NCBI RefSeq assembly: GCF_009834535.1
Contig: NC_045696.1
Span: 36,520,001 to 36,584,000 of the forward strand
Length of the DNA stretch: 64,000 nt
Source of the DNA: Camelus ferus
Taxonomy: Eukaryota
Reading direction: 5' to 3'
In this document: one piece after another, positions 7,191-62,335 of the stretch
How positions within the stretch are numbered: position 1 is the stretch's first letter
Layout of the letters: every line of letters begins with the position of its first letter
The notes under the pieces: generated by a model
Database searches by the model: none
What the model saw: only the letters and a program-made list of their open reading frames with translations
Told to the model about the DNA's origin: nothing
Position numbers and translations under genes: made by a program

Positions 7191-7342
7191 TTCCTCCTTC
7201 CTTCCTTCCTTCCTTCCCTCCTTCCCTCTTTCTCGCCTTCCTTTCTTCCCTCCTTCCCTCCTTCCTTCCTTCCTTCCCTCCTTCCCTCTTTCCCACCTTC
7301 CTTTCTCCCCTCCTTCCCTCTTTCCTTCCTTCCTTCCTTCCT
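7191..7342. repeat. (TTCC)n-derived polypyrimidine tract containing a 60-bp tandem duplication
   Basis: 7201-7260 and 7261-7320 match at 57/60 positions. Confidence 0.95.
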
Positions 7343-7967
7343 TGACTAAGGTGAGACAATCCTAGAGGTGATTACTTGGCTCACTTGCACATAAGGAGCT
7401 CTTACAATTTGTTTTTACCTTTCAGGTTTCAGTCATATAAATTTAGCACCTATATATACTTGATTTAAATTAATTAATCTCCAAAAGAAATGGAACACAT
7501 TTTACAGCTACTCTCTGTCACCTTTTTCATGCATCATTGACCAGGCTTTTTTTGTTTCATAAGCCACTAGAGAGAGACCAGAAGGTTTTGTTTCTTAGAA
7601 ATTTGCTCAGTGACATCTTATACATTTTCTTAATTTATTTCTAAGTTGAAATTCTCATAATTTTCCTTGTAACTAATTTTTTTCACATTTAATACATGAT
7701 CCGTTCCTAATGCTCTAGTTTGTGGATTCACGCCATGAACACGGAGTCTATTGAGACTAGATTTTTATTCAGTCTTGGATTTTTTTTCTCTTAAAAACAA
7801 CATTTTTGTTTTATAATCAGAAGCCAAACTCAAAGTACATCATCTTTCTTTCTATCAAAACTCATCAAATAACCAGTTTGCATGTTCTTATGTTAATCAT
7901 ACATTCATTTCTCAATAATAGAATATGTAATTTTCTGCTACTTATCTGTAGTATTAATCCTACCTTC

Positions 7968-12960: not shown

Positions 12961-13261
12961 CTTTTTTTAATTTTTAAATTTGAAAAAATTTTTATTGAGG
13001 TATAGTTGATGTACAATATTACATAAATTTCAAGTGTACAGCACAGTGATTCACAATTTTTAAAGGTTATATTCCATTTGTGGCTATTAGAAAATATTGG
13101 CTGTATTCCCTGTGTTGTACAGTGTATCTTTGTAGCTTATTTACTTCATACATAGTAGTTCTAACCTCTTAGGTTATTCCCTGCCGCTATCTTGCCCCTT
13201 CCCTCTTCCCTCTCTCCACTGGTAGCCACTAGTTTGTTTTCTATATCTGTGAGTCTGGATC

Positions 13262-13312
<51 letters not shown>

Positions 13313-13913
13313 GTTATTATTGTTATTATTGTTATTATTATTATATTCACTAGTTTGTTTTAGACTTTATATTCCACATGTAAGTAATACACAGTATTTG
13401 TCTTTCTCTGCTTGACTTATTTCACTTAGAATAATACACTCCTAGTCCATCCATGTAGTTACAAGTGGCAAAATTTCATTCTTTTTTATGTTTGAATAGT
13501 ATTCCATTGTTATATATACACTACATCTTCTTTATCCATTCATCTATTGATGGACACTTAGGTTGCTTCCATATCCTAGCAATTATAAATAATGCTTCTG
13601 TAAACATTGGTTTGCATGTATCTTTTCAAATTAGTATTTTTCTTTTTTTCAGATATATACCCAGGACTGGAATTGCCACGTTCTATTTTTGTAGTTCTAT
13701 TTTTAGTTTTTTGAGAAATCTCCGTACTGTTTTCCACAGTGGCTGCACCAATTTCCATTCCCATGAATAGTGTATTAGGGTTTTCTTTTCTCCACATCCT
13801 TTCCAATGTTTGTTATTTGTTTTCGTTTTGATGACAGCCATTCTGATTGGTGTGAAGTGATACCTCATTGTGGTTTTAATCTGCATTTCTCAGATGATTA
13901 CTGATGTTGAGCA
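12961..13913 (-). mobile_element. 5'-truncated L1 (ORF2 C-terminus and 3'UTR)
   Basis: ORF 13683-13886 [20 protein letters not shown]...[13 protein letters not shown] is the L1 ORF2 C-terminal region; T-rich tail on the left. Confidence 0.95.
13263..13343. repeat. (TAT)n microsatellite inside the L1 3'UTR
   Basis: Directly visible TAT run with a few TGT variants. Confidence 0.95.
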
Positions 13914-17299: not shown

Positions 17300-18257
17300 A
17301 TAAAGTAGCACACTTTCTTCCTGACCCCTTGGCAGCCTTGCCATGCTGGCTCATTATTTCTTGGAAAGGCGAACTTTCTCTGTCTTAATGGCATATGCTA
17401 CTCTGGTTTTCCCTTACATCTTGTGGACTTTTTGCTCTCTTTTAATCCTTTTTCTTAAAGTTAGTAATCTCTGAGCTTCTTTTCTTGATTCTTTTACATC
17501 CCCATTCAGTTTTTTAAAATTGAAGTATATTTGATTTACAATGTTGTGTTGGTTTCTGGTATACAGCATACTGATTCAGTTATACATTATACATTATATA
17601 TATATATATGTATGTGTATATATATATTCATATATAAAAAGTATATATTCATATTCTTTTCATTATAGATTATTATGTATATAGATTATTGTAGATTATC
17701 ATTATAGATTATATATAGATTATAGATTATCATTATAGATTATTGTATATAAATATATATTATATTTATTATATTTATTATAATTATTATATTTATTTAA
17801 TTATATAATTTACATATTATATACTTTATTATTTATATATTATATTATATTTATTTATTTTTATTATATATATTTAATCATATATAAATATATATATTTA
17901 TTCATTCTTTTTCATTATAGATTATTACAATCTATTACATATACTTCTGGGTGCTATGCAATAGGACCTTGTTGTTAATCTATTTGTATATAGTAGTTTG
18001 TATCTGTTAATCCCAAACTCCTAATTTACCCCTCCCCAACTCCTTTCCTCTTTGATACCCGTAAGTTTGTTTCCTGTGTCTGTGAGTCTGTCTTTGCTTT
18101 GTAAATAATTACATTTGTGTCATTGTTTTAGATTCCACATATAAGTGATATTATATGATATTTGTCTTTCTCCGACTTAGTACAATGATCTCCAGGGCCA
18201 TCCATATTGCTGCAAATGACATTATTTCATTCTTTTTTAAGCTGAGTAGTATTCCAT

Positions 18258-18293
<36 letters not shown>

Positions 18294-19670
18294 CACCACA
18301 TCTTCTTTATCTGATCATCTGTCAGTGGACGTTTAGACTGCCTCCATGTCTTGGTTAATATAAATAGTTGCTGCCATGAACACTGGGGTGCATGTATCTT
18401 TTCAAATTAGAGTTTTCTCCTGATAATATGCCCGGGAGTGGGATTACTGGATCATAGGGTAAGTCTATTTTCACTTTTTAAAGGAATCTCCATACTGTTT
18501 TCCATAGCGGCTGCACCAATTTATATTCCCACCAACTCTGAATGTTCCCTTTTCTCCACACCCTCTCCAGCATTTACTGTTTGTGGATTCCCTATATTTT
18601 TTGTGTTTTCAAATATTTCCACGTTTCCACCAATCATCTCTGCATACATGATTTCTATTATTTTCAGCTTTTTCCAGCTACTGAAACTGCATTTCTAACT
18701 GCCTGTTAAATAGGCTCATTTTGATGTTTGCTGATATATCAGGTTTAATTTGTCCAAATCTGAATTCATTATTTCCTCAACACCCTAAACCAGCTTGCCC
18801 TCCTTATTCCTCTTTCTGTTAATGTCACTTCTTTTTCCCAGTTGTTTAGGTTCAAAGCCTAGGAATAAATTTTCCTTATCGTATATCATTCCTTTGACAT
18901 TATGACACTCAAAGAATTGTCAAGACTTGCATATTTTACTTCTGAAATATTCTCTCATCCATCTTCAGTTTTGCATTTTTCTTCTACAATCATAATTCAT
19001 CTCTTCTCATACCATTGCAAGAGTGAACTGTTGGTCTCTCTACATCTGAAAGTCTTTGTAAGTTACACTGCAAATACATGTTATGTTAATCTGCTTAAAG
19101 CATAGCTCTGGCTCACATGTTCAAAGGCTACCAATGGTCCCTACTGGCTAACAGTGTTTTTTTTTTTTTTTTTTAATTTTGATTAAAGCATAATACTTTC
19201 TCTAGGAAATGGCTCCCTACTACCTTGCTATCATCTTTTCTCTCACTTTGCTGCAGGTGCCCTATCCAAGTGCTTCTCAGATTTAACATGTGTACTAATC
19301 AAATGCAGATCATGTGCTTCTCTCTGGAAGTACTATCTGATTTCTTGGTTTTGTGCTATTCACGGACTGTAATACCTTGTCTCTCATCTTCCTCTATTAT
19401 AATCCTATTCCTCCTTGAAAGCACATCTTGAAAGCCACCGTATCCATGAGATCTTATTTGCATGAATTTTATGTCCTCTCTCAAATTCTCAAACATCTAT
19501 TTGTATATTGTTCATAACACCTAAACTAGATGACCTCGAATGATATTTTCCCAAATAGAAGGTTAGAAGTATGAAGATGGGCTTTGCTTTATTTCACTCT
19601 AAATCCCCTATAGACTTTGCACAACACTTCGCATGCATTAGGTGCTCAGTAACTATTGTTTGAATGGGAT
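17300..19670 (+). mobile_element. L2 LINE remnant split by a younger L1
   Basis: L2 motifs on both sides of the L1 (tgtccaaatctgaattcattatttcc; gcacaacacttcgcatgcattaggtgctcagtaactattgtttgaatg). Confidence 0.65.
17509..18590 (-). mobile_element. 5'-truncated L1 3' end with an internal AT-rich expansion and (TG)n
   Basis: ttgaagtatatttgatttacaatgttgtgtt 3'UTR; ggctgcaccaatttatattcccaccaac ORF2-end motif. Confidence 0.9.
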
Positions 19671-23476: not shown

Positions 23477-24083
23477 TGTTACAGCAGGGAGATAGCCACG
23501 TATGAGCAGAGAAAGGGGGATGCAGGCCAAGTGACAGGAAACCATACATCATGTAAACAACAGGGGTCCCTGGGCAGCCAGAGAAAAGCAGGAACCTCTG
23601 GGCTGATAAGCAGTCACACATTTTGGGTGACAAGTGCCCTGGAGTCTGACAAAGAAAGGTGGGAAAAGGCAGGAATCTCCAGTGTCTCCAGTGTCTAACC
23701 GTTTGCTCATTATGCCCTCATTTCAATAAAATTAGCCTTTGGGATTAGAAGTACCCATCATGCACTGACGCCATGACCCTTTGGATCCAGGCTAAATAAG
23801 GATAATAATCCCACTTCCCTTCAGGAAGGTGGAGTTGGGATGAAAATCAGGGAATATGACCCCAAACCCTTCCTTTCCTAGTGAATATTCTGCCTATTCA
23901 TTTTTACACCGTATGCAATCAACTTGCCAAAGAAACTCAGGGCAGCCGCTCACCTGAGCCTGCCTGCTCTCTCCTTGAGAGTGCACTTTCCATCCTTTAA
24001 TAAATCCTCACTTTACTTTCTTAATCTCCATCTAATCTCTGAATTCTTTCTGTGACAAGACAAGAACCTAATCACCGGCAACA
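23477..24083 (+). mobile_element. ERV1-type solo LTR (607 bp)
   Basis: Termini TGTT...AACA; exact 4-bp TSD GATT (23473-23476, 24084-24087); AATAAA at 23999-24004 followed by a U5-like tail gaattctttctgtgacaagacaagaacc. Confidence 0.9.
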
Positions 24084-28745: not shown

Positions 28746-29752
28746 AAAGTTATTGATCATCCAAACTATAGCTACCTTTTATCATGTTATTAAAATATAC
28801 AAATAATTGTACAATATTTTTTATCTCAATGAATTTTTGTTTCAATGACAGATGTCCTATATATAAAACTACATTAAAGATTTTATATGTATAATATTGC
28901 CTAAAAACTGAAATTATATAAGCAAATTTAGGCAAAAGGTTTTTTGAGGAATATTTCTTATGTAGTTTGCTTATATCTCAGCTCAGCTCCTATGGTTTTT
29001 TATCTTATTTGCTAATGCAGGGTTAGTGAAGCAAAGCCAATAACATGCATATTTCTTTATTTTATTTGCATAACTGTATCTTAAAAGTATAAATCAATTA
29101 TTTTAATAAAACTTAATAACTGTAGAAATAACTTCTGTTATGATATTGCTTTGTTTTCAATTTACATATGTGTTTCATAATGTAATCCATTCATATTATC
29201 TTAAAGACTATGAGATGATAGTAGATAGAAAGTAGATAATTGAAGCAATTATCTAGATAGATCATGATCTGAAGCAAACCTTTTAAACTCTGAGTTAAAA
29301 TGGAGAAAATATCCATTTATACATATAACTTTTCAATTTTGCATATTTTTTGGAAAAATATTCTGTTTTCTTAGGTCACCTAAACTTGAAACCCCAGAAC
29401 CAGTTTTGAGTTCCCTCTCCTACACCTCCTGCTTATCTCTGTGCCTAAACTTTTCATCCAAGTTATTACCAAGTCCTGTAGTTTCTATCACCATCTGATT
29501 TGTCCTTGGCTTTCTCTTCCTCTGTATCTCCAAGACAGATCTTCCATAGTAACTTTCTAGGCTAATCATTATGCAAATCCATCATATACAAAGACTAGTT
29601 ATGCCATTTCTTTACTCTAATACATTTAAAGATTTTCCATTGTTGAATCAGGAAAATGGTCCTTAGCTTGCTAGCCAGATGCCTCTATAACACGGCTCCC
29701 TACTGCTTCATTAGCTGCTCCTCCACTTCTTGCTTTTTTTTTTTTTTTTTTT

Positions 29753-30241
29753 GAGTGAAGGTAGATTTATTCAGAGATACACTGAAAGGCAAGGGAGAGG
29801 CCACGAGGTGTGGGGGTTGGGTGCTCAGATTAAAAGTAGGTACACACTCTGTAGACAGAATATGGGCCGTCTCCAAAGAGGGAGAGGGAGGGGTGGCCAC
29901 AAGGTGCTATGTTGCTGGTTTTTATGGGCTTGGTGGCTTCATATGCTAATAAGTAGAAGGACCAGTCTAAGGGGAAGGGGCTAGGATTCCCAGGAAGTTG
30001 GCCATTTCCCACCCTTTGACCTTTTGTGGCTAGCCTCGGGACTGCCATGGTGCCTGTGGGCATGTTATTCACCATGTTAATATATTACAGTGGGCTTGTA
30101 ATGAAGCTCAAGATCTACTAGAAGTTAAATCTCTCATCATCCTGAGCCTCAAGGCCTACTGGGGGTTGAATCTTTCATCATTTTGATGTTAACTGCTGTG
30201 GCATTCCTTGAATGGCTGTGCCCTGCCCCCTTCCTGTCTCA
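29753..30241 (-). mobile_element. 3' LTR U3+R only (no U5)
   Basis: Begins TGAGACAGG directly after the PPT; TATA-like CATAAAAA near 29919-29926; AATAAA at 29771-29766, 13 nt before the poly(A). Confidence 0.88.
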
Positions 30242-30251
30242 TTCTCCCCTC
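30242..30251 (-). other. Retroviral polypurine tract (GAGGGGAGAA)
   Basis: All-purine 10-mer directly abutting the TG start of the LTR. Confidence 0.85.
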
Positions 30252-30289
30252 AGAGATTCTACTCCCATAATCTCATGGGGTTGCAGAGG

Positions 30290-30600
30290 GTCGAAGATCC
30301 GTCTTCTGAAACTGCTTCCAGGCTGAGTAGGGGCGTTGACCCTACCTATCAGGGAGTAAAAAATCTCTGAATGCCTTATCTAGGGGCCCCAGGGGCAGGA
30401 CAGCCTTTTGTTTTCGCATCCAAGGGCTGAGGGTGTGGGCCGGAAACCTCGCACAGCCATCATCTGATGTGGGGCTGCTGTAACCCACTGTTTCCATTGA
30501 CTTCTGATGAATTTTCTTAAAGATGAAGCACCTTTGTAACAACAGTTTGACAGTCTGTAACAACAAAAAGACTTAAAAGGCATGGTTAAACATTTGTAAT
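30290..30600 (-). pseudogene. env: Probable env 3'-end remnant
   Basis: Only ~380 bp lie between the IN stop and the PPT; fragments QMMAVRGFRP and LGPLD resemble class I Env cytoplasmic tails; no SU/TM ectodomain. Confidence 0.45.
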
Positions 30601-30628
30601 CACCGCTACATGATATTATTTGTTTTTC

Positions 30629-32316
30629 TTAAACAAGTACCTGAGGTCTTGTATTGCCTCGCCAAGTGTAGGTCTCTCCTGGCTCCTGTTGGGGCTTATA
30701 AGTTACAAGTTTTATCCTGGACAGACGTACCCAACTAGCAATTCCTCGTAGCTTAACGTCAGTTGGGGTGCTCAGTAGTACCTGATACGGTCCCTTCCAT
30801 TTTGGCTGTAGCTGGTCTTCAGGGGACCCCTCCTTCCAAGTTTTTAGTAAGGCAAATTCCCCTGATTGGACAGGGACTTCAGACTTTTCCTCTGTGGGAA
30901 AGGGCAACACTTTGTTTCCATATTCTTGGAGAGCATTTTGAACTTGACTTAAGCTAACAATGTGGGAAACTAATCTGTGAGTTTCCTCATCAAACAGGAA
31001 ATCTGCAGTTAAAAAGGGCCTCCCATAAATCATTTCAAATAGGCTGTTTTAAAATTCCCTTAGGGGCCGTCCTTATTCTTAGAAGGGCTATAGGTAGGAG
31101 GGGGACCCAGGTTTCTGAAGTCTCCTGACATAGCTTAGCAAGTGTTCTCTTTAGAACATGATTTGCTTTTTCTACCTTGCCTGAGGATTGAGGCCTCCAG
31201 GAAGAGTGGAGGCGATAGTTAATATCCAGAGCGGAGGAAACCTATTGAGTCACCTTGGCAGTGAAGGAGGGTCCATTATCACTTTGTAAGCTTTTTGGTA
31301 GCCCAAATCTTGGGATTATTTCTTTGAGCAGAAATTTTGACACTTCTATTGCTTTTTCCGTTCTGGTGGGGAAAGCTTCTACCCATCCTGTAAAAGTGTC
31401 TATGAATACCAACACGTATTTCCCTCCCTTACAAGAGGGCATCTGGGGAAAGTCCATTTGCCAATCTTCCCCTTTATAAGTTCCCCGATGTTGTGTGGGC
31501 CGGAGTAGGGGTAGGGGTATAGGGTGACTTCCTGGGTCATTGCGGGCACAAAGTTCACAGGCCCTAGTGACTTCCTTAATCGTTTGGGACAGCCCCTTGC
31601 CTAGGAACACTTGAGAAATTAGTCTGAGCATGGAGTCCCGCCCTAGGTGGGTGGACTCATGGAGATGCTTAATTATTTTCCATTGTTTGTCCCCAGGAAT
31701 GAGAAGCTTACTATCTTTTGTCAGCCACTCCAAGAGATTCTTCTCTAGCCCCCTATGTTTAGCCCATTCAACCTCTTCAGGTGTATAGGATGGTGCCGTT
31801 GGGAGAGGCTGGTCCTCAGGTTGGAGAACTGCGGCTTGTAAGACCGGCTGTTCTCTGGCTGCAGCTTTGGCAGCCTTGGCTGTGAGGGCATTTCCCTTTA
31901 CAAGGGAAGAATCACACTTTTGGTGACCCCTGCAGTGTATGGCTGCACCCTCTTTAGGAAGCTGGACTGCTTCTAGGAGTTTTAGAATTTTTGCCTGGAA
32001 TTTAGTGATTAAATCCCTTCCCAACAAGGGGATGAGGCACTCAGGCATGAGCAAAAGCTGATGTGCAAAGGTAAAATTTTTTAGCAGGCAGCTAAGGGGG
32101 GCTGTAAATCGCTTGGTTTGGGGCTTTCTGTCAATCCCCTGTTACTACACAGGATTGGGAGGACCAGGGTCCAGGGAAATTAGTCAGCACAGAGTAGGCG
32201 GCTCCTGTATATAATAAGAAAACAACTTTTCTACCTGCCACGTTAAGGGTTACCCGAAGCTCCTCCAGAGAAATGAGCAGGTGTCCTGTGGGAGCCGTGG
32301 AGGGCCTTGGGCCCCA
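30629..32316 (-). pseudogene. pol: Disrupted gammaretrovirus-like pro-pol: protease, RNase H C-terminus and integrase; RT absent
   Basis: Protease FLL(Y)TGAAYSVL and PLLGRDL; RNase H tail IHCRGHQK...GN; IN HLHESTH...CELC, WQMDF, DTFTGWVEAFP, SDNG, GKVEKAN, KWKGPYQVLL; TAG at 31244-31242 and frameshifts near 31045 and 32090-32140. Confidence 0.95.
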
Positions 32317-34164
32317 TCAGTCTTCAGCACTTCTTCCTTATATGAACCCAACAGGAAGCCACACAGACAGTTCAGCCAGACACATTCTATGCTTTCCAAC
32401 TTTTGTATTTTTGTTGTAGTTTTTGCTAAATCTTCTTAATTTTTAAATCTTACACAGCTTTGGGGTCCCATTCATAAAGGATCTACTCCAGAAATCAGTC
32501 TTTGATTTCCCAACCTGATGACTTCACTCCTTTGAACCACATTAACATTTTCTACCCTCTTACATCACTTACATCCTGATTGTTACTATAGATATTTGTA
32601 AGGTTATTTAACCCTCTCCCAACTCCATAGATATTAGATCACAATTATCTTGAGAGTTTAGTTTCTTGTTTATAATTTTACCTCTCACAGAGCCTAATTT
32701 TGCATCTTATGACTAATATTATTTACTGTTTTTGTTTTTGTGGAAACAGAATTAAATTTTCATTTCTTGACATACATTAAAAGAAAGCATTCCATTTATA
32801 AAATGAAGTACAGAGTTAAGGAGTAGAAGAGCTATTTAGTTAGGATCAGGTATATTAAGAAAATTTAGTGCTTAGCCTTTTAATTTACTGAAGTTCTGTT
32901 TTAGTTAGATTCATTTTTCTTTTTTAACCTTTTTCCCCTTTTTTCTTCACCTTTTATCTTTCTTTGCTGTATGTGTCTTCATATAGATATAGCAATAACT
33001 ATTTCTCATCCCCAGTGTCAAAGAATTCTTCCTCTATTTGATTTTCCCTAAGGGTAGGCAGAGTGATTTAGAATAAACTACATTTGACTTGAATTCTTAC
33101 AAATTTCTGAAAATGTCAAAGTTTTAAATTGCAAACCTTTGTATAGGATTTGTGAAATCTTGACTTACTTCCAGATTCTGCTTTGAGCAACAAAACACAC
33201 CATGCTTAAAGTCGAGCTTATTTGAAGAACACAAAGTGATGTCTGAAAGAAATATTATTCAGAGTATCACTCCCTCTCAGAAATAGCTCAATATGCTCAA
33301 CACACCCATCTGCACAGCAGTAAACTTCTACGCCAAGCAAGCAAATCAAATCGATATTAGTCAATGACTTCCCTTTGGGAAGAAGGGTGTCAGTGTTAAT
33401 GGAGGGTAAATGCTACATGAGGTCTGTCTTTATATGTTTGTGGGCTACTTTCAGCAGCTGTACTTTCAGAAAGTCATTTCATTTATGGCTTTTTTGGAGC
33501 GATGTTTGCATAAAATACTAACCTGAATACATTTAATCTTTACATTTTTAAGAAAAAGCTGCTCAATTTGGAGCATATTCACTTCTGCTGAAATGTTGCT
33601 GTTTGAAGCTGCATGTAGATCTTTTGAGAGGCCACATGCTTGAGTCTCTATTTTTAAATTTTCATGACAGCTTTTACACTCTCCTGAACATGCAGAATCT
33701 AAGCTTCTACTGAAGCGTGTAATTACTAGTGATGACTTAGCACCTGCCATGTGGTGCCAAGCAATGGCAATTGGAAGCAATGTCAATAAGAAAACTGGCA
33801 AACTGGAGATAGCCAAGTGAGAGATAACTCAGAGAATCACGTGCTCTGGCAAACACTCCCACTATTGTTAGTAAAAAATATGAACTTTATTTACAAGAAA
33901 TTTTATGTAATCTCTAAGGTGCCCACATCAGAGGAAATGAAAGGGCTGCTTTGTTGTTTAGAATGAAGACATGGCTTCATGGATGATTTGAGTGTCCTAC
34001 TCCTCTAAAATGATTTTTCACCTAACCTGTCATTTTATCTTCTGCCTCCGCTATTTGATTTGCTTCTTTGGATTAGGGCAGTATCCGTAAAGACCAAGTC
34101 TAAAAGCCCAGAGCTATGACATGGAAGACCTAGGGATGGGGTTGAAGAGAACCTGTAACTTAGG

Positions 34165-36125: not shown

Positions 36126-36149
36126 CTCATATTAAGATCCAGAAAGAGG

Positions 36150-36271
36150 GAAGGGAAGAATATAGCTCAGTGGTAGAGTACATGCTTATTAGCAAGCATG
36201 AGGTCCTGGATTCAATCCTCAGTACCTCCATTAAAAATAAATAAATAAAAAAGCCTAATTACCTCCCCCAC

Positions 36272-36302
<31 letters not shown>
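36150..36302 (+). mobile_element. Camelid vic-1-type tRNA-derived SINE
   Basis: A box TAGCTCAGTGG, B box GGATTCAATCC, tail aaataaataaa...cctaattacctccccc, 31-A run (36274-36304); exact 16-bp TSD AAGATCCAGAAAGAGG (36134-36149, 36303-36318) at a TT/AAGA site. Confidence 0.9.
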
Positions 36303-36306
<4 letters not shown>

Positions 36307-36351
36307 TCCAGAAAGAGGAAATTCAGAATCATTTGTGCCAAGAGTACAGAT

Positions 36352-37638: not shown

Positions 37639-40600
37639 TTTTTTTTTATTGAAGTGTAGCCAGTTTACAATGTTGTGTCAATTTCTGGTGTATAGCATAA
37701 TGTTTCAGTCTTGCATATACATACACATATTCCTTTTCATATTTTTCATTATAGATTACTAAAAGATATTGAATATAGTTGCCTGTGCTATACCATATAA
37801 ACTTGTTGTTTGTATCTGTTTCATTTATAGTAGTTAGTATCTGCAAATCCCGAACTCCCAGTTTCTCCTTTCCCAGTCCTTTTCCCCGCTGGTAACCATA
37901 AGTTTGTTCTCTATGTCTGTGAGTCTGTTTCTGTTTTGTAAATAAGTTCATTTGTATCTTTCTTTTTTTTATATATATTCCATATATGAGTGATATCATA
38001 TGGTATTTTTCTTTCTCTTTCTGGATTACTTCATTAAGAGTGACAGTCTCCAGTTCCATCCATGTTGCTGCAAATGGCATTATTTTATTCATTTTTATGT
38101 CTGAGTAGTATCCCATTGTTTATATGTACCACAGCTTCTTTATCCAGTCATCTGTCAATGGACATTTAGGTTGTTTCCATATCTTGGCTATTATAAATAA
38201 TACTGCTGTGAACATTGGCATGCATTGTCTTTTTGAATTATAGTTTTCTCTGGGTATATGCCCAAGAGTGGGATTGCTGGATCATATGGTAAGTCTATTT
38301 TTAGTTTTTTAAGGAACTTCCATACTGTCCTCCATAGTGGCAGTACCAATTTACATTCCTACCACCAGTGTAGGTGGGTTCCTTTTTCTCCACATTCTCT
38401 CCAGTGTTCATCATTTGTAGATTTTGAATGATGGTCTTTCTGATTGGTGTGAGGTGATACCTCATTGTAGTTTTGACTTGCATTTCTCTGACAATTAGTG
38501 ATGTTGAGCATCTTTCCATCTGGATGTCTTCTTTGAAGAGATGTTTAGGTCTTCTGCCCATTTTTTGAGGTTGCTTTTTTTTTTTTTTGATATTAAGCTG
38601 CATAAGCTGCTGTTTGTATATTTTGGAAATTAGTCCCTTGTCGGTTGCATCATTTGCAAATATTTTCTGTCATTTTGTAAGTGATCTTTTCATTTGTTGA
38701 TGGTATCCTTAGCTGTGCAAAAGCTTTTAAATTTAATTAAACCCCATTTGTTTATTTTTTATTTTATTTCCATTACTCCAGGAGCTGGTTCAAAAAATAT
38801 TGCTGTGATTTTTGTCAAAGAGTGTTCTGTCTGTTTTGCTCTAGGAGTTTTATAGTATCTAGTCTTATGTTTAGGTTTTTAATCCACTTTGAATTTATTT
38901 TTATATATGGTGTTAGATAATGTTCTAATTTCATTCTTTTACTGTCCAGTTTTCCCAGCACCACTTATTGATGAGACTCTCTTTCCTCCATTATATATTT
39001 TTCCTCCTTTGTCATAGATTAATTGACCATAAGTGTGTGGGTTTATTTCTGGACTTTCTATCCTGTTCATTGATTTATGTGTCTCTTTTTGTGTTAGTGC
39101 TATACTGTTTTGATTACTGTAACTTTGTAGGGTAGTCTGAAGTCAGGGAGCATGATTCCCCCACCTCTGTTCTTCTTTCTCAAGATTGTTTTGGCTATTT
39201 GGGGTCTTCTGTGTTTCCATACAAATCTTAACATTTTTGTTCCAGTTCTGTGAAAAATGTCATTGGTAATTTGATAGGAATTGCATTTAATCTGTGTATT
39301 TTCTTGGGTAGTATGGCCAGTTTAACAGTACTGATTCTTCCAATCCAAGAACACAGTATACCTTTCTGTCTGTGTTGTCTTCAATTTCTTTCATCAGTGT
39401 CTTATTGGTTTCAGAATATAGTTCCTTTGCCTCCTTAGGTAGGTTTATTCTTAGTTATTTTATTCTTTTTTTTAACTTTTTTTTTTGAGTTATAGTCATT
39501 TTACAATGTTGTGTCAAATTCCAGTGTAGAGCACAAATTTTCAGTTATACATGAACATACATACATTCATTGTCACATTCTCTTTCTCTATGAGCCACCA
39601 CAAGATCCTGTATATATTTCCCTATGCTACACAGTACAATCTTGTTTATCTAGTCTACATTTTGAAATCCCAGTCTGTCCCTTCCCATCCCCCACCCCCC
39701 TGGCAACCACAAGTTTGTATTCTTTGTCTATGAGTCTGTTTCTGTTTTGTATTTATGTTTATTTTATTCTTTTTGATGAGATGTTAAATGGGATTGTTTC
39801 CTTAATTTATCTTTCCTGGTATTTCATTGTTAGTGTATAGAAATGCAGTTGATTTCTGTATATTAATTTTGTATCCTACAATTTTACCAAATTCATTGAT
39901 GAGCTCTAGTAGTTTTCTGGTAGTGTCTTTAGGGTTTTCTATGTATAGTTTCATGTCATCTGCAGGCTGTGACAGTTTTACTTCTTTTGCAATTGAGATT
40001 CCTTTTATTTCTTTTTCTTCTGTGATTCCTGTGGCTAGGACTTCCAAAAGTGTGTTGAATAAAAGTGGTGAGAGGGAGCATCCTTGTCTTGTTCTTGATC
40101 TTAGAGGAAGTGCTTTCAGCTTTTCACCATTAAGTATGATGTTACCTGTGGTTTGTCATATATGACCTTTGTTATGTTGAGGTATGTTCCCTCTATGCCC
40201 ATTTTCTGGAGAGTTTTTATCATAAATGGATGTTGAATTTTATTAAAAGCTTTTTCTGCATCTGTTGAGATGATTATATGGTTTTTATTCTTCAATTTGT
40301 TAATGTGATATATCACACTGATTGATTTGTAGATATTGAAAAATCCTTGCATCCTTGGGATAAGTCCCACTTGATCATGGTGTATGACCCTTTTAATGCA
40401 TTGTTGGAGTCAATCTGCTAGTATTTTGTTGAGGATTTTTGCATTTATATTCATAAGTGATTTTGGCCTGTATTTTTCTTTTTTGTGATATCTTTGTCTG
40501 GTTTTGGTATCAAGGTGATAGTGGCCTCTTCCTTCCTCTGCAATTTTTGGGAATCGTTTCAGAGGATAGGCATTAACTCTTTTCTAAGGAATTGGTAGAA

Positions 40601-42370
40601 TTTGCCTGTGAAACCATCTTCTACTGGACTTTTGTTTGTTGGGAGTTTTAAAATTACTGATTCGATTTCAGTACTGGTAATTGGTCTATTCATATTTTCT
40701 ATTTCTCCCTGGTTCAGTCTTGACAAATTGTACCTGTCTAAGACATTGTCCGTTTCTTCTGCATTGTCATTTCTGTTGGCATATAGTTGCTTATAGTAGC
40801 TTCTTATGATCCTTTGTATTTCTGTGATGTTGGTTGTGATTTCTCCTTTTTCATTTCTGATTTTATTAATTTGGGCCCTCTCCCTTTTTTCCTTGATGAG
40901 TTTGACTAAGGGGTTATCCATTTTGTTTATCTTTTCACAGAACCAGCTTTTATTTTCATTGATCTTTTCTATTTTTTAAGTCTCTATTTTGTTTATTTCT
41001 GCTCTAATCTTTATGATATCTTTCCTTCTACTAAATTTGGGTTCTGTTTGTCGTTATTCCTCTAGTTGCTTTAGGTATAAGGTTAGGTTGTTTATTTGAG
41101 ATTTTTCTTGTTTCCTGAGATAAGCTTGCATCACTATAAAATTTCCTCTTAGAACTGCTTTGGCTGTGTCCCAGAGGTTTTGGATCATCATGTTTTTGTT
41201 TTCATTTGTCTCTAAGTATTTCTTTATTTCCTCTTTGATTTCCTCGGTGATCCATTAGTTGCTTAGTAGCATATTATTTAGCCTCCACATGTTTGTGGTT
41301 TTTGTAGATTTTTTTCATGTAGTTGATTTCTAATTTCATAGCATTGTGGTTGGAAAAGATGCTTAAATGACTTCAGTTTTCTTAAATCTGCTTTGTGGTT
41401 CAGCATGTGATCTATTCTGGAGGATGTTCTATGTGCAGTTGAATGTGTATTCTGTTGCTTTTGGATGAAATGCTCTATAAATACCAATTAAGTCCATCTG
41501 GTCTAATGCATCACTTAAGGCCTGTATTTCCTTACTGATTTTCTATCTGGATGATCTGTCTATTGATGTAAGTGGGACATTAAGGTCCTCCACTATTACT
41601 GTGTTTTTGTCAATTTCTCCTTTTTTGGGGTCAATTTCTCCTTTTACTTCTATTAACAGTTGCCTTATATATTGAGGTGTTCCTATGTTGGGTGCATATA
41701 TATTTACAATTGTTACATCTTCTTGGAGTGATCCCTTGAGCATTATGTAGTTCTTCTTTGTCTTCTTTGTCTTCTTTGTCTCTTGTAACAGTTTTTATTT
41801 TAAAGTCTATTTTGTCTAATATAAGTATTGCTACTCCAGCTTTCTTTTGGTTTCCATTTTCATGGAATATCTTTTTCCATCCCCTCACTTTCAGCCTGTA
41901 TGTGTCTCTAGCTCTGAAGTGGATCTCCTGTAGACAGCTTATATACAGGTCTTGTTTTTTTGTATCCATTCAGCCAGTCTGTGTCTTTTGGTTGCAGCAT
42001 TTAATCCATCTACTTTTGAGGTAATTATCAATATGCATATTCTTATTGTCATTTTGTTGATTGTTTTGGATTTGTTTTTGTAAGTTTTTTTTTCTCTTCC
42101 TTCCTTTTGTTCTCTTCTCTTGTGGTTTGATGACTATAATGTTGCATTTGGATTCCTTTTTCTTTTATGTATGTATATCTATTACAGATTTTTGGTTTGT
42201 GGTTACCATGAGGTTTTGCTATAGAAATATATATATATTTCTTTTAACTTGCTGATCTCTTAATTTTAAGTGCATTTTTGATAACCTGCATTTGTACTCT
42301 CCTTCCCTCACAATTATTGGTTTTGATATCATATTTTACATCTAATTATTTTGTATATACTCTAACTTAT
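37639..42370 (-). mobile_element. ~4.4-kb L1: complete but disrupted ORF2, 3'UTR and part of the inter-ORF spacer; ORF1 and 5'UTR absent
   Basis: EN (CLQEIHF, KKAGVAILI, NIYAPN, SRIDHML), RT ([27 protein letters not shown]) and C-terminal (MRYHLTP) fragments across ORFs 37646-41969; many stops and frameshifts. Confidence 0.97.
39471..39758 (-). mobile_element. Younger L1 3'UTR fragment nested in the ORF2 of the long L1
   Basis: 16-bp TSD TTATTTTATTCTTTTT (39455-39470, 39759-39774); 3'UTR variant differs from the host element's. Confidence 0.9.
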
Positions 42371-51586: not shown

Positions 51587-52067
51587 TGTGATCGTTAATT
51601 TTATGTGTCAACTTGACTGGGCTAAGGGATGCTCAGATAGCTGGTAAAACAGTATTTCTGGGTGTGACTGTGAAGGTGTTTCAGGAAGAGATTAGTATTT
51701 GATTCAGTGGACCCAGTAAAGAGATCTGTCTTCACCAATGTGGGTGGGCATCATCCAATTCTTTTAGGACCTGGATGGAAAAAAAGGTGAAGGAAGGGTG
51801 CATGGTCTCTCTTTTTGCTTGAGCTGGGATGTCTATCTTTTTCTGCACTTGGACATTGTAGTTTTTGGTTCTCCAGCCTTTGAACCCTGGACTTATACTA
51901 GTGGCCCTCTGGTTCTCAAGCCTTTGGCCTCGGCTAAATTACACCACCACTTTTCTGGTTCCAGATGGAAGATTGTGGGACTTCTCAGTGTCCATAATTG
52001 CACGAGCCAATTCCCATTATATATATATAGTTAAATATATCTCTATCTATCTAATCTATCTAATCTA

Positions 52068-52119
<52 letters not shown>

Positions 52120-55830: not shown

Positions 55831-56697
55831 ATCAAAACTATAATGAGGTATCACCTCACACCAGTCAGAATGGCCATCATTCAAAAGTCCACAAACAGTA
55901 AATGCTGGAAAGGGTTTGGAGAAAAGGGAACCCTCCTACACTGCTAGTGGGAATGCAGTTTGGTGCAGCCATTATGGAAAACAGTATTTGAGATTCCTCA
56001 GACACTAAAAATAGACTTACCATATAATCCAGCAATCTCACTTCTGGATATATCCAGAGGGAATTCTAATTCGAAAAGATACATGCAGCCCAATGTTCAT
56101 AGTAGGACTATATAAAATAGGCAAGACATGGAAGCCACCTAAATGTGCAACAACAGATGACTGGATAAAGGAGCTATAATATATTTATACAATGAAATAC
56201 TACTAAGTCATTAAAAAAGAATAAAATAATGCCATTTGCATGAACATGGATGGACCTAGAGATCGTCATTCTAAGTGATGGAAGCCAGAAAGAGAAAGAA
56301 AAATACCATATGATATCACTCATATGTCGAATCTAAAAAAAAAAAAAAAAAAAGACACTATGAACTCATGTATGAAACAGAAACAGACTTGCAGACATAG
56401 TAAACAATCTTATGGTTACTGGGGAAAGGGGGTGGGAAGGGATAATTTTGGGAGTTTGAGAGTTACAAATGTTAGCCACTATATATAAAAATAGATTTAA
56501 AATTTTTCTTCTGTATAGCACAGGGAACTATGTTCAATATCTTGTAATAAACTTTAATGAAAACTATGAAAATGAATATATGTGTGTATATGCATGGCTG
56601 GGACATTGTGCTGCACACCAGAAATGGACACATTGTAACTGATGATACTTCAATAAAATAAATAAATAAAATTAATTTTTTTTTTAAATTAAAAAAA
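55831..56697 (+). mobile_element. 5'-truncated L1 (ORF2 C-terminus, 3'UTR, A-rich tail)
   Basis: aatgaggtatcacctcacaccagtcagaatggccatcat; ttcaataaaataaataaataaa tail. Confidence 0.95.
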
Positions 56698-61682: not shown

Positions 61683-62335
61683 CTTTTTTTTTAAATCTTT
61701 TTTTCCAGAATTATGTATTTACTTTTATTGAAGTATAGTCAGTTTACAATGTTGTGTCAATTTCTGGTATATAGCATAATGTTTCAGTCATACATATATA
61801 CACATTCCTTTTCATAATCTTTTTCATTTTTATTATAGGTTACTGTAAGTTATTGAATATAGTTCTCTGTCCAATATAGCATAAATTTGTTGTTCATCTA
61901 TTTTATATATAGTAGTTAGTATCTGCAAATCTTGAACTCCCATCTTAGCCCTTCCCATCCTCTCTCCCCTCAGTAACCAGAAGTTTGTTTTCTATGTCTG
62001 TGAGTCTGTTTCTGTTTTGTAAATAAGTTCATTTGTGTCTTTTTTTTTGGATTCCACACATAAGTGATATCATATGGTATTTTTCTTTCTCTTTCTGGCT
62101 TACTTCACTTAGAATGATGACCTCCAGGTCCATCCATGTTGCTGCAAATGGCATTATTTTGTTCTTTTTAATGAATGAGTAGTATATATATGTATGATTA
62201 CTACTATACTATATATATATACACCACAACTTTTTTATCCAGTTATCTTTCAAGGGACATTTAGATTTTTCCATATCCTAGCTATTGTAAATAGTGCTGC
62301 TATGTACACTTGGGTGCAGGTGTCTTCTCGAATTA
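61683..62335 (-). mobile_element. 5'-truncated L1 3' end
   Basis: TSD TCCTCTTAATT (61672-61682, 62336-62346); same 3'UTR family as the 37.6-kb copy. Confidence 0.93.

Follow-up and report, generated by a model that had tools for sequence, protein, structure and literature searches.

The 64,000-nt stretch of contig NC_045696.1 analysed here (positions 36,520,001 to 36,584,000 of the forward strand, hereafter the window) contains on its minus strand the relic of an endogenous retrovirus (ERV) of ∼2.6 kb. It runs from a gag stop codon through protease, the last part of RNase H, integrase and a post-pol remnant to a polypurine tract (PPT), the U3 and R regions of a single long terminal repeat (LTR) and a run of 19 adenines (A19). 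This copy is very likely a 5′-truncated processed pseudogene that would have arisen when L1 retroposed an unspliced RNA of the ERV itself, transcribed in all probability from a provirus that had already suffered deletions. Three features point to the L1 machinery acting on a polyadenylated RNA by target-primed reverse transcription, namely an LTR that seems to end after U3 and R, a tail beginning where the RNA would be cleaved and a target-site duplication of 12 bp. Ordinary retroviral replication leaves other traces: reverse transcription rebuilds U5, and integrase generates TG...CA ends and target-site duplications (TSDs) of 4-6 bp. This integrase-type signature is absent from the ERV copy.

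The 3′ end of the element

All parts of the element lie on the minus strand. The PPT (30242-30251) directly precedes the LTR (29753-30241), which is 489 nt long, starts with TG at 30241 (first bases TGAGACAGG) and contains a TATA-like ATAAAA at 29925. It appears to comprise U3 and R only, without U5, and has no CA-type inverted end. The hexamer AATAAA at 29771-29766 is the sole AATAAA or ATTAAA of the 2.6-kb element, and the A19 tail (29734-29752), whose final two As also belong to the duplication, sets in 13 nt past its end, which places polyadenylation at the canonical cleavage distance. Measured from the start of AATAAA, the LTR ends after 19 nt, as against 67, 68 and 85 nt after the last poly(A) signal in three solo LTRs of other families in the window. 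In the 900 nt downstream, the LTR start has no inverted match of 6 or 7 nt and a single one of 5 nt, 537 nt away, and no second LTR or further part of the element is present within the 64-kb window. Since no other copy of this family's LTR was obtained, we infer the loss of U5 from these features rather than from an alignment with a full-length LTR of the same family. The succession of PPT, U3, R, AATAAA and A19, with neither U5 nor an inverted terminus, had been noticed in a preliminary description of the window, and every part of it was recovered in its place.

The presumed R region (29753-29930) folds better than its shuffled versions (z -2.4; 2/200 shuffles), an observation to which no interpretation is attached.

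Target-site duplication and far viral boundary

The two copies of the 12-bp repeat, read on the minus strand, are AAGGAAGAAGTG at 32328-32339 on the 5′ side and AAGCAAGAAGTG at 29724-29735 on the 3′ side. They agree at 11/12 positions, form the longest repeat common to both junction regions and bracket the element exactly at the viral boundary. A 12-mer with at most one mismatch arose by chance in a 21-offset slot in 36 of 200,000 random trials, while window-wide counts give a chance of 0.0005 for a 60-nt slot and of 0.057 if any place within 7.5 kb is allowed; when only the 10 bases of the repeat other than A are considered, the latter value rises to 0.16. In a blind search around 12 A-runs of the window, two other runs had 11-12-nt partners with one mismatch, at unrelated places. 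Because similar repeats arise by chance when their place is free, the repeat is significant only by its position on the viral boundary.

This boundary is supported separately from the repeat. None of 203 tblastn hits obtained with 175 ERV-related proteins lies outside the element, no CCHC knuckle occurs in the three frames of the 1.5 kb upstream of it, and composition change points fall at 32316, 32372 and 32380, with wide intervals spanning 32307-32470. At the truncation point (32317-32327), 8 nt are followed by a TGA (32319-32317) in frame with protease, so that the protease frame begins 11 nt past the 5′ copy of the repeat. The 8 nt presumably represent the end of gag, to which they are assigned by position, as no gag domain remains. 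The lack of a 5′ LTR and of gag, the start 8 nt before the gag stop and the 12-bp repeat with one mismatch had all been reported beforehand, and they withstood these searches.

No non-viral sequence is found within the duplication. The deduced nick site on the bottom strand, CCTT/AT (top strand AT/AAGG), consists of a pyrimidine run followed by A and is degenerate with respect to the L1 consensus. Both flanks are purine-rich on the minus strand and resemble L2. The proposal that an L2-like remnant continues on both sides could not be confirmed: comparison of the flanks with the remainder of the window by blastn, nhmmer and tile alignment gave nothing significant across the junction.

Coding relics and internal deletions

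The protease relic (31986-32316) is spread over two frames, its active-site motif is degenerate, and its Pfam RVP matches are weak and under the cut-off (E 0.047 and 0.0053). It is joined directly to RNase H (31986-32003), reverse transcriptase (RT) and most of RNase H being missing. Eleven longer pol proteins start to match at 32003-31988, where protease similarity stops, and two metagenome contigs (L001 and L002) behave alike. This join may also have arisen by splicing, a reading that was considered. What is left of RNase H, its terminal part, is followed by integrase (together 30616-31990), the latter with an H2C2 finger at ∼31700-31536 (PF17921, E 6e-12), an rve domain at ∼31469-31248 (PF00665, E 2e-13) and an MLV-type C-terminal domain at ∼30817-30707 (PF18697, E 4e-12), in which a WKGPY motif conforms to the WXnGPYXV pattern of GPY/F. 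On account of this C-terminal domain and its motif, the element can be classified as a class I, gamma-like ERV. The nearest relatives of the integrase, at 55-70% identity, are unnamed sequences; named ones reach at most 48%. The end of pol and the region before the LTR resemble those of the ERV-W/9 group, to which the element may be akin.

The interval that separates pol from the PPT, where env would be expected, is taken up by a remnant of 367 nt (30252-30615) that contains no Pfam family, which suggests that nearly all of env is gone; by its position, the remnant would be a piece of env. The absence of RT and of nearly all env was not recognized in the first reading of the sequence. Stops and frameshifts interrupt both protease and integrase, and the copy is very probably an inert relic, unable to replicate because it has no U5, primer-binding site, 5′ LTR or RT.

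Evidence for an unspliced template

The post-pol remnant contains an acceptor-like site (TTTTTGTTGTTACAG) that ends at 30555 and still has its upstream pyrimidine tract. A search with the post-pol frame against 1.84 billion representative sequences gave four matches, three of which are repeat-rich proteins that were set aside as noise. The fourth is XP_072798200.1 of Vicugna pacos (P0178), a gene model and hence a prediction only, in which residues 283-315 match the post-pol frame at 23/33 positions. The seven residues before 283 match in another frame; the last 39 aa thus correspond, in two frames, to the bases that directly follow the acceptor-like site (30554-30437). Upstream, the model is degenerate and LANCL2-like, and it switches to ERV exactly after an acceptor homologous to 30555. 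A related ERV copy thus probably donates a terminal exon to the alpaca gene model, where the homologue of the 30555 acceptor seems to be used. In the window, the persistence of this acceptor with its pyrimidine tract, together with the lack of non-viral sequence inside the duplication, suggests that the RNA template was unspliced at this site and of genomic type.

Proposed mechanism and alternative explanations

The following course of events is proposed. The starting point would have been a provirus at another genomic site, by then probably devoid of RT and of most of env, which was transcribed in the germ line. As the anatomy of the 3′ end shows, its RNA was cleaved and polyadenylated where R meets U5 in the 3′ LTR, 13 nt after AATAAA. 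In keeping with established L1 biology, ORF2p may then have nicked the target at CCTT/AT, the poly(A) tail would have served for priming, and ∼2.6 kb would have been copied until synthesis halted 8 nt upstream of the gag stop. Repair left the 12-bp duplication that is seen today, and stops and frameshifts have accumulated since. A stalling of reverse transcription at a gag-pro read-through structure was looked for as well and set aside, the region showing no unusual folding (z -0.38).

Several observations weigh against this mechanism. The insertion is known from an occupied site at a single locus, and scans for exact patterns of the LTR returned 0 loci from metagenome contigs and likewise 0 from viral contigs. 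The repeat is mismatched and purine-rich and, with its position left free, unremarkable (0.057); the nick site departs from TTTT/AA at 3/6 positions. As to the missing genes, the deletions of RT and env may have occurred either before or after the insertion.

The best-surviving alternative, although an unlikely one, is that a host or L1 transcript read through the provirus, ended at the LTR poly(A) site and was inserted by L1 as a 5′-truncated copy, in the manner of an orphan 3′ transduction or a host retrocopy. The 5′ truncation erases any evidence of the promoter, and XP_072798200.1, which joins LANCL2-like sequence to the ERV post-pol region at the acceptor homologous to 30555, makes it seem that host transcripts are able to end in this ERV family. 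A spliced host RNA, however, would contain ERV sequence only from 30554, whereas the copy reaches ∼1.77 kb further upstream without splicing; moreover, no host or L1 bases occur within the duplication, and the alpaca model is a prediction. If this origin were true, the copy would be silent about the ERV family's own RNA.

Much less credit can be given to an ordinary provirus whose 5′ half and U5 were deleted later; the A-run would then have been inserted or expanded at a later time, and the 12-mer would repeat by chance. Two large internal deletions do already exist in the element, one-mismatch 11-12-mers also arise by chance near other A-runs, and the continuity of L2 across the junction is not demonstrated by the non-significant alignments. 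Such a history nevertheless needs three coincidences: an A-run spaced from the sole AATAAA as cleavage would require, a repeat no more than a few bases from the far boundary (0.0002-0.0005) and the disappearance of every trace of gag and of the 5′ LTR. Least probable of all is an RNA-templated insertion at a staggered break that already existed and had not been made by the L1 endonuclease, which would account for a nick site that matches the L1 consensus only in degenerate form, but endonuclease-independent insertions usually have no poly(A) tail, TSD or pyrimidine/purine junction, and the intact poly(A), the 12-bp duplication and the junction of a pyrimidine run with a purine fit ordinary target-primed reverse transcription.

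L1-mediated retroposition of polyadenylated ERV RNA remains the most likely origin of this copy, in agreement with the preliminary description. The further proposal made there, that the family spread at least in part via L1, is not yet supported, because it rests on one copy; sporadic retrocopies are also known in families that have not spread in this way (HML-2 and ARTenvV). A wider version of it, doubtful at present, would make this copy one of many that L1 produced in repeated rounds from the unspliced RNA of a camelid class I ERV subfamily, perhaps ERV-W/9-like, that lacks RT and env.

Related copies in sequence collections

The presence of the locus elsewhere was estimated in 24 listed sequencing runs, which were scored, without alignment, by the share of the words of 28800-33300 that they contain. 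Words from the flanks alone make up 0.41 of this interval and those of the element 0.59. In 14 of the 24 runs (three organisms, eight studies, ∼2 billion contig letters each), the share amounts to 0.72-0.76, and four small runs contain none. As these shares exceed the flank-only 0.41, the 14 runs must contain no less than half of the words of the element, and the insertion or near-identical copies of it are thus common to those three organisms.

Two RNA-seq runs, annotated as reproductive system metagenome, contain 0.64-0.65 of the words of the same interval, flank included, which exceeds the 0.59 contributed by the element. They were not used as a sign of expression, since DNA carry-over or intronic RNA could explain them, and four small shares (0.07-0.25) were likewise left unused.

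Searches of sequence collections for family copies with the protease and post-pol frames returned nothing from the family. Protein-led scans of viral contigs confirmed 0/9 and 0/38 candidates. A similar scan of metagenomes confirmed 65/378, with best segments of at most 46% identity, none of which belongs to the family of the ERV copy. L001 and L002 are metagenome contigs that carry pieces of vertebrate class I ERV pol, 38-46% identical to the integrase described here, and they probably represent host DNA.

Neighbouring repeats in the window

The three solo LTRs whose exact 4-bp TSDs had been noted in the preliminary description have TG...CA ends and lie at 623-1220 and 1628-1955 on the minus strand and at 23477-24083 on the plus strand. 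None of the three has a blastn match to the LTR of the ERV copy. Belonging to other families, they illustrate the rule of integrase-mediated insertion and not the U5 of the ERV copy's own family.

A tRNA-derived simple short interspersed element (SINE) with an Rfam tRNA match occupies 36153-36304 on the plus strand; it has an A31 tail, a TCTT/AA nick site and a 19-bp duplication with one mismatch (36134-36152 and 36303-36321). It looks like vic-1, and in SINEBase the vic-1 entry describes a simple SINE of camels; a camelid origin of the window is likely, if indirectly supported. An L1 relic extends over ∼37640-42000 on the minus strand, with RT fragments at 39805-40409. The L1 RT fragments, together with the SINE and its A31 and 19-bp duplication, indicate that the L1 machinery was active in the region in the past. 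Outside the element, 78 open reading frames of at least 75 aa were found, of which two have a Pfam match, in both cases to L1 RT.

More L1 3′-end copies occur near 13400, 17500-18600, 39450, 46100, 51100, 56000-56630 (plus strand) and 61700-62300. Long simple repeats lie at 7195-7346, 13260-13350, 17750-17880 and 52066-52119 (TCCT, TTA, AT-rich and TCTA, respectively).

Comparison with known systems and significance

The closest parallel is HERV-W, for which 135 of 213 loci are listed as processed pseudogenes in PMC5016936, according to criteria that include a U3-R end, poly(A), a TT/AAAA motif and a 5-15-bp TSD. The same source gives more than half of these pseudogenes as lacking the 5′ LTR, and env as deleted in 85% of HERV-W loci. 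The copy described here has poly(A) at the cleavage site, a 12-bp TSD within the 5-15-bp range and a 5′ truncation. Its insertion site, AT/AAGG as against TT/AAAA, has a pyrimidine run followed by A on the bottom strand and does not match the consensus. With the pseudogenes of HERV-W and catarrhine ERV-W, as they are portrayed in PMC5016936, PMC5537654, PMC5775608 and PMC6995185, it shares the apparent U3-R end, poly(A), the 5-15-bp TSD, the frequent loss of the 5′ LTR and gag, large deletions in pol and env and a gamma-like class I character. Unlike them, it resides in a non-primate host, is represented by one copy as opposed to 135 of 213 loci and has a degenerate nick site. It also retains integrase and has lost RT, whereas 84% of HERV-W loci are reported to lack the integrase part. 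In the account of PMC5537654 (also PMC11359688 and PMC5775608), HERV-W is the sole human ERV group regularly mobilized by L1. Platyrrhine ERV-W is presented in PMC6995185 as having no processed copies, and the reason why HERV-W RNA was favoured over that of its close platyrrhine relatives is left there as an open question.

Sporadic cases are known as well. ERVK-30 and ERVK-31, retrocopies of HML-2 rec mRNA, are likewise 5′-truncated L1 products with poly(A) and a TSD; those derive from spliced class II RNAs, in contrast to the unspliced, internally deleted class I RNA suggested here (comparison with the description in PMC4351823). The ARTenvV retrocopy of Hippotraginae, which has a 14-bp TSD, is also an L1 retrocopy of an ERV-derived RNA in an artiodactyl, but, according to PMC9604959, it stems from the spliced mRNA of a co-opted env, whereas the present element is a pro-pol-LTR fragment in which no gene is intact. 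Because the ARTenvV retrocopy is already known, neither non-primates nor artiodactyls are new ground. The short, probably non-autonomous ERV1 clusters of V. pacos outlined in PMC8605555 resemble the present element as camelid class I sequences of reduced coding content; those were detected as two-LTR elements, and the TE library of that study may contain the present family.

The word pseudogene is absent from the main text of two camel repeat surveys (PMC8605555, PMC6675863). No report of a camelid ERV processed pseudogene was found in the searchable literature, and subscription journals, Repbase, Dfam or the supplements of the surveys may describe the family. The process itself is known already and has mostly been described in primates. 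New here are the lack of RT and of nearly all env and an RNA unspliced at the acceptor-like site. Copies of this kind are missed by finders that require two LTRs, of the type used in camelid annotation according to PMC8605555.

A single dead copy changes little. As a clean example of the unspliced, genomic type in a probable camelid, it nevertheless suggests that this route has also been taken outside primates, and it provides a probe for a count across the genome. Should the copy turn out to be one of many, it would constitute a second HERV-W-like case, outside primates, and the contrast with platyrrhine ERV-W, where such copies do not occur, would point to a feature of the RNA that attracts L1.

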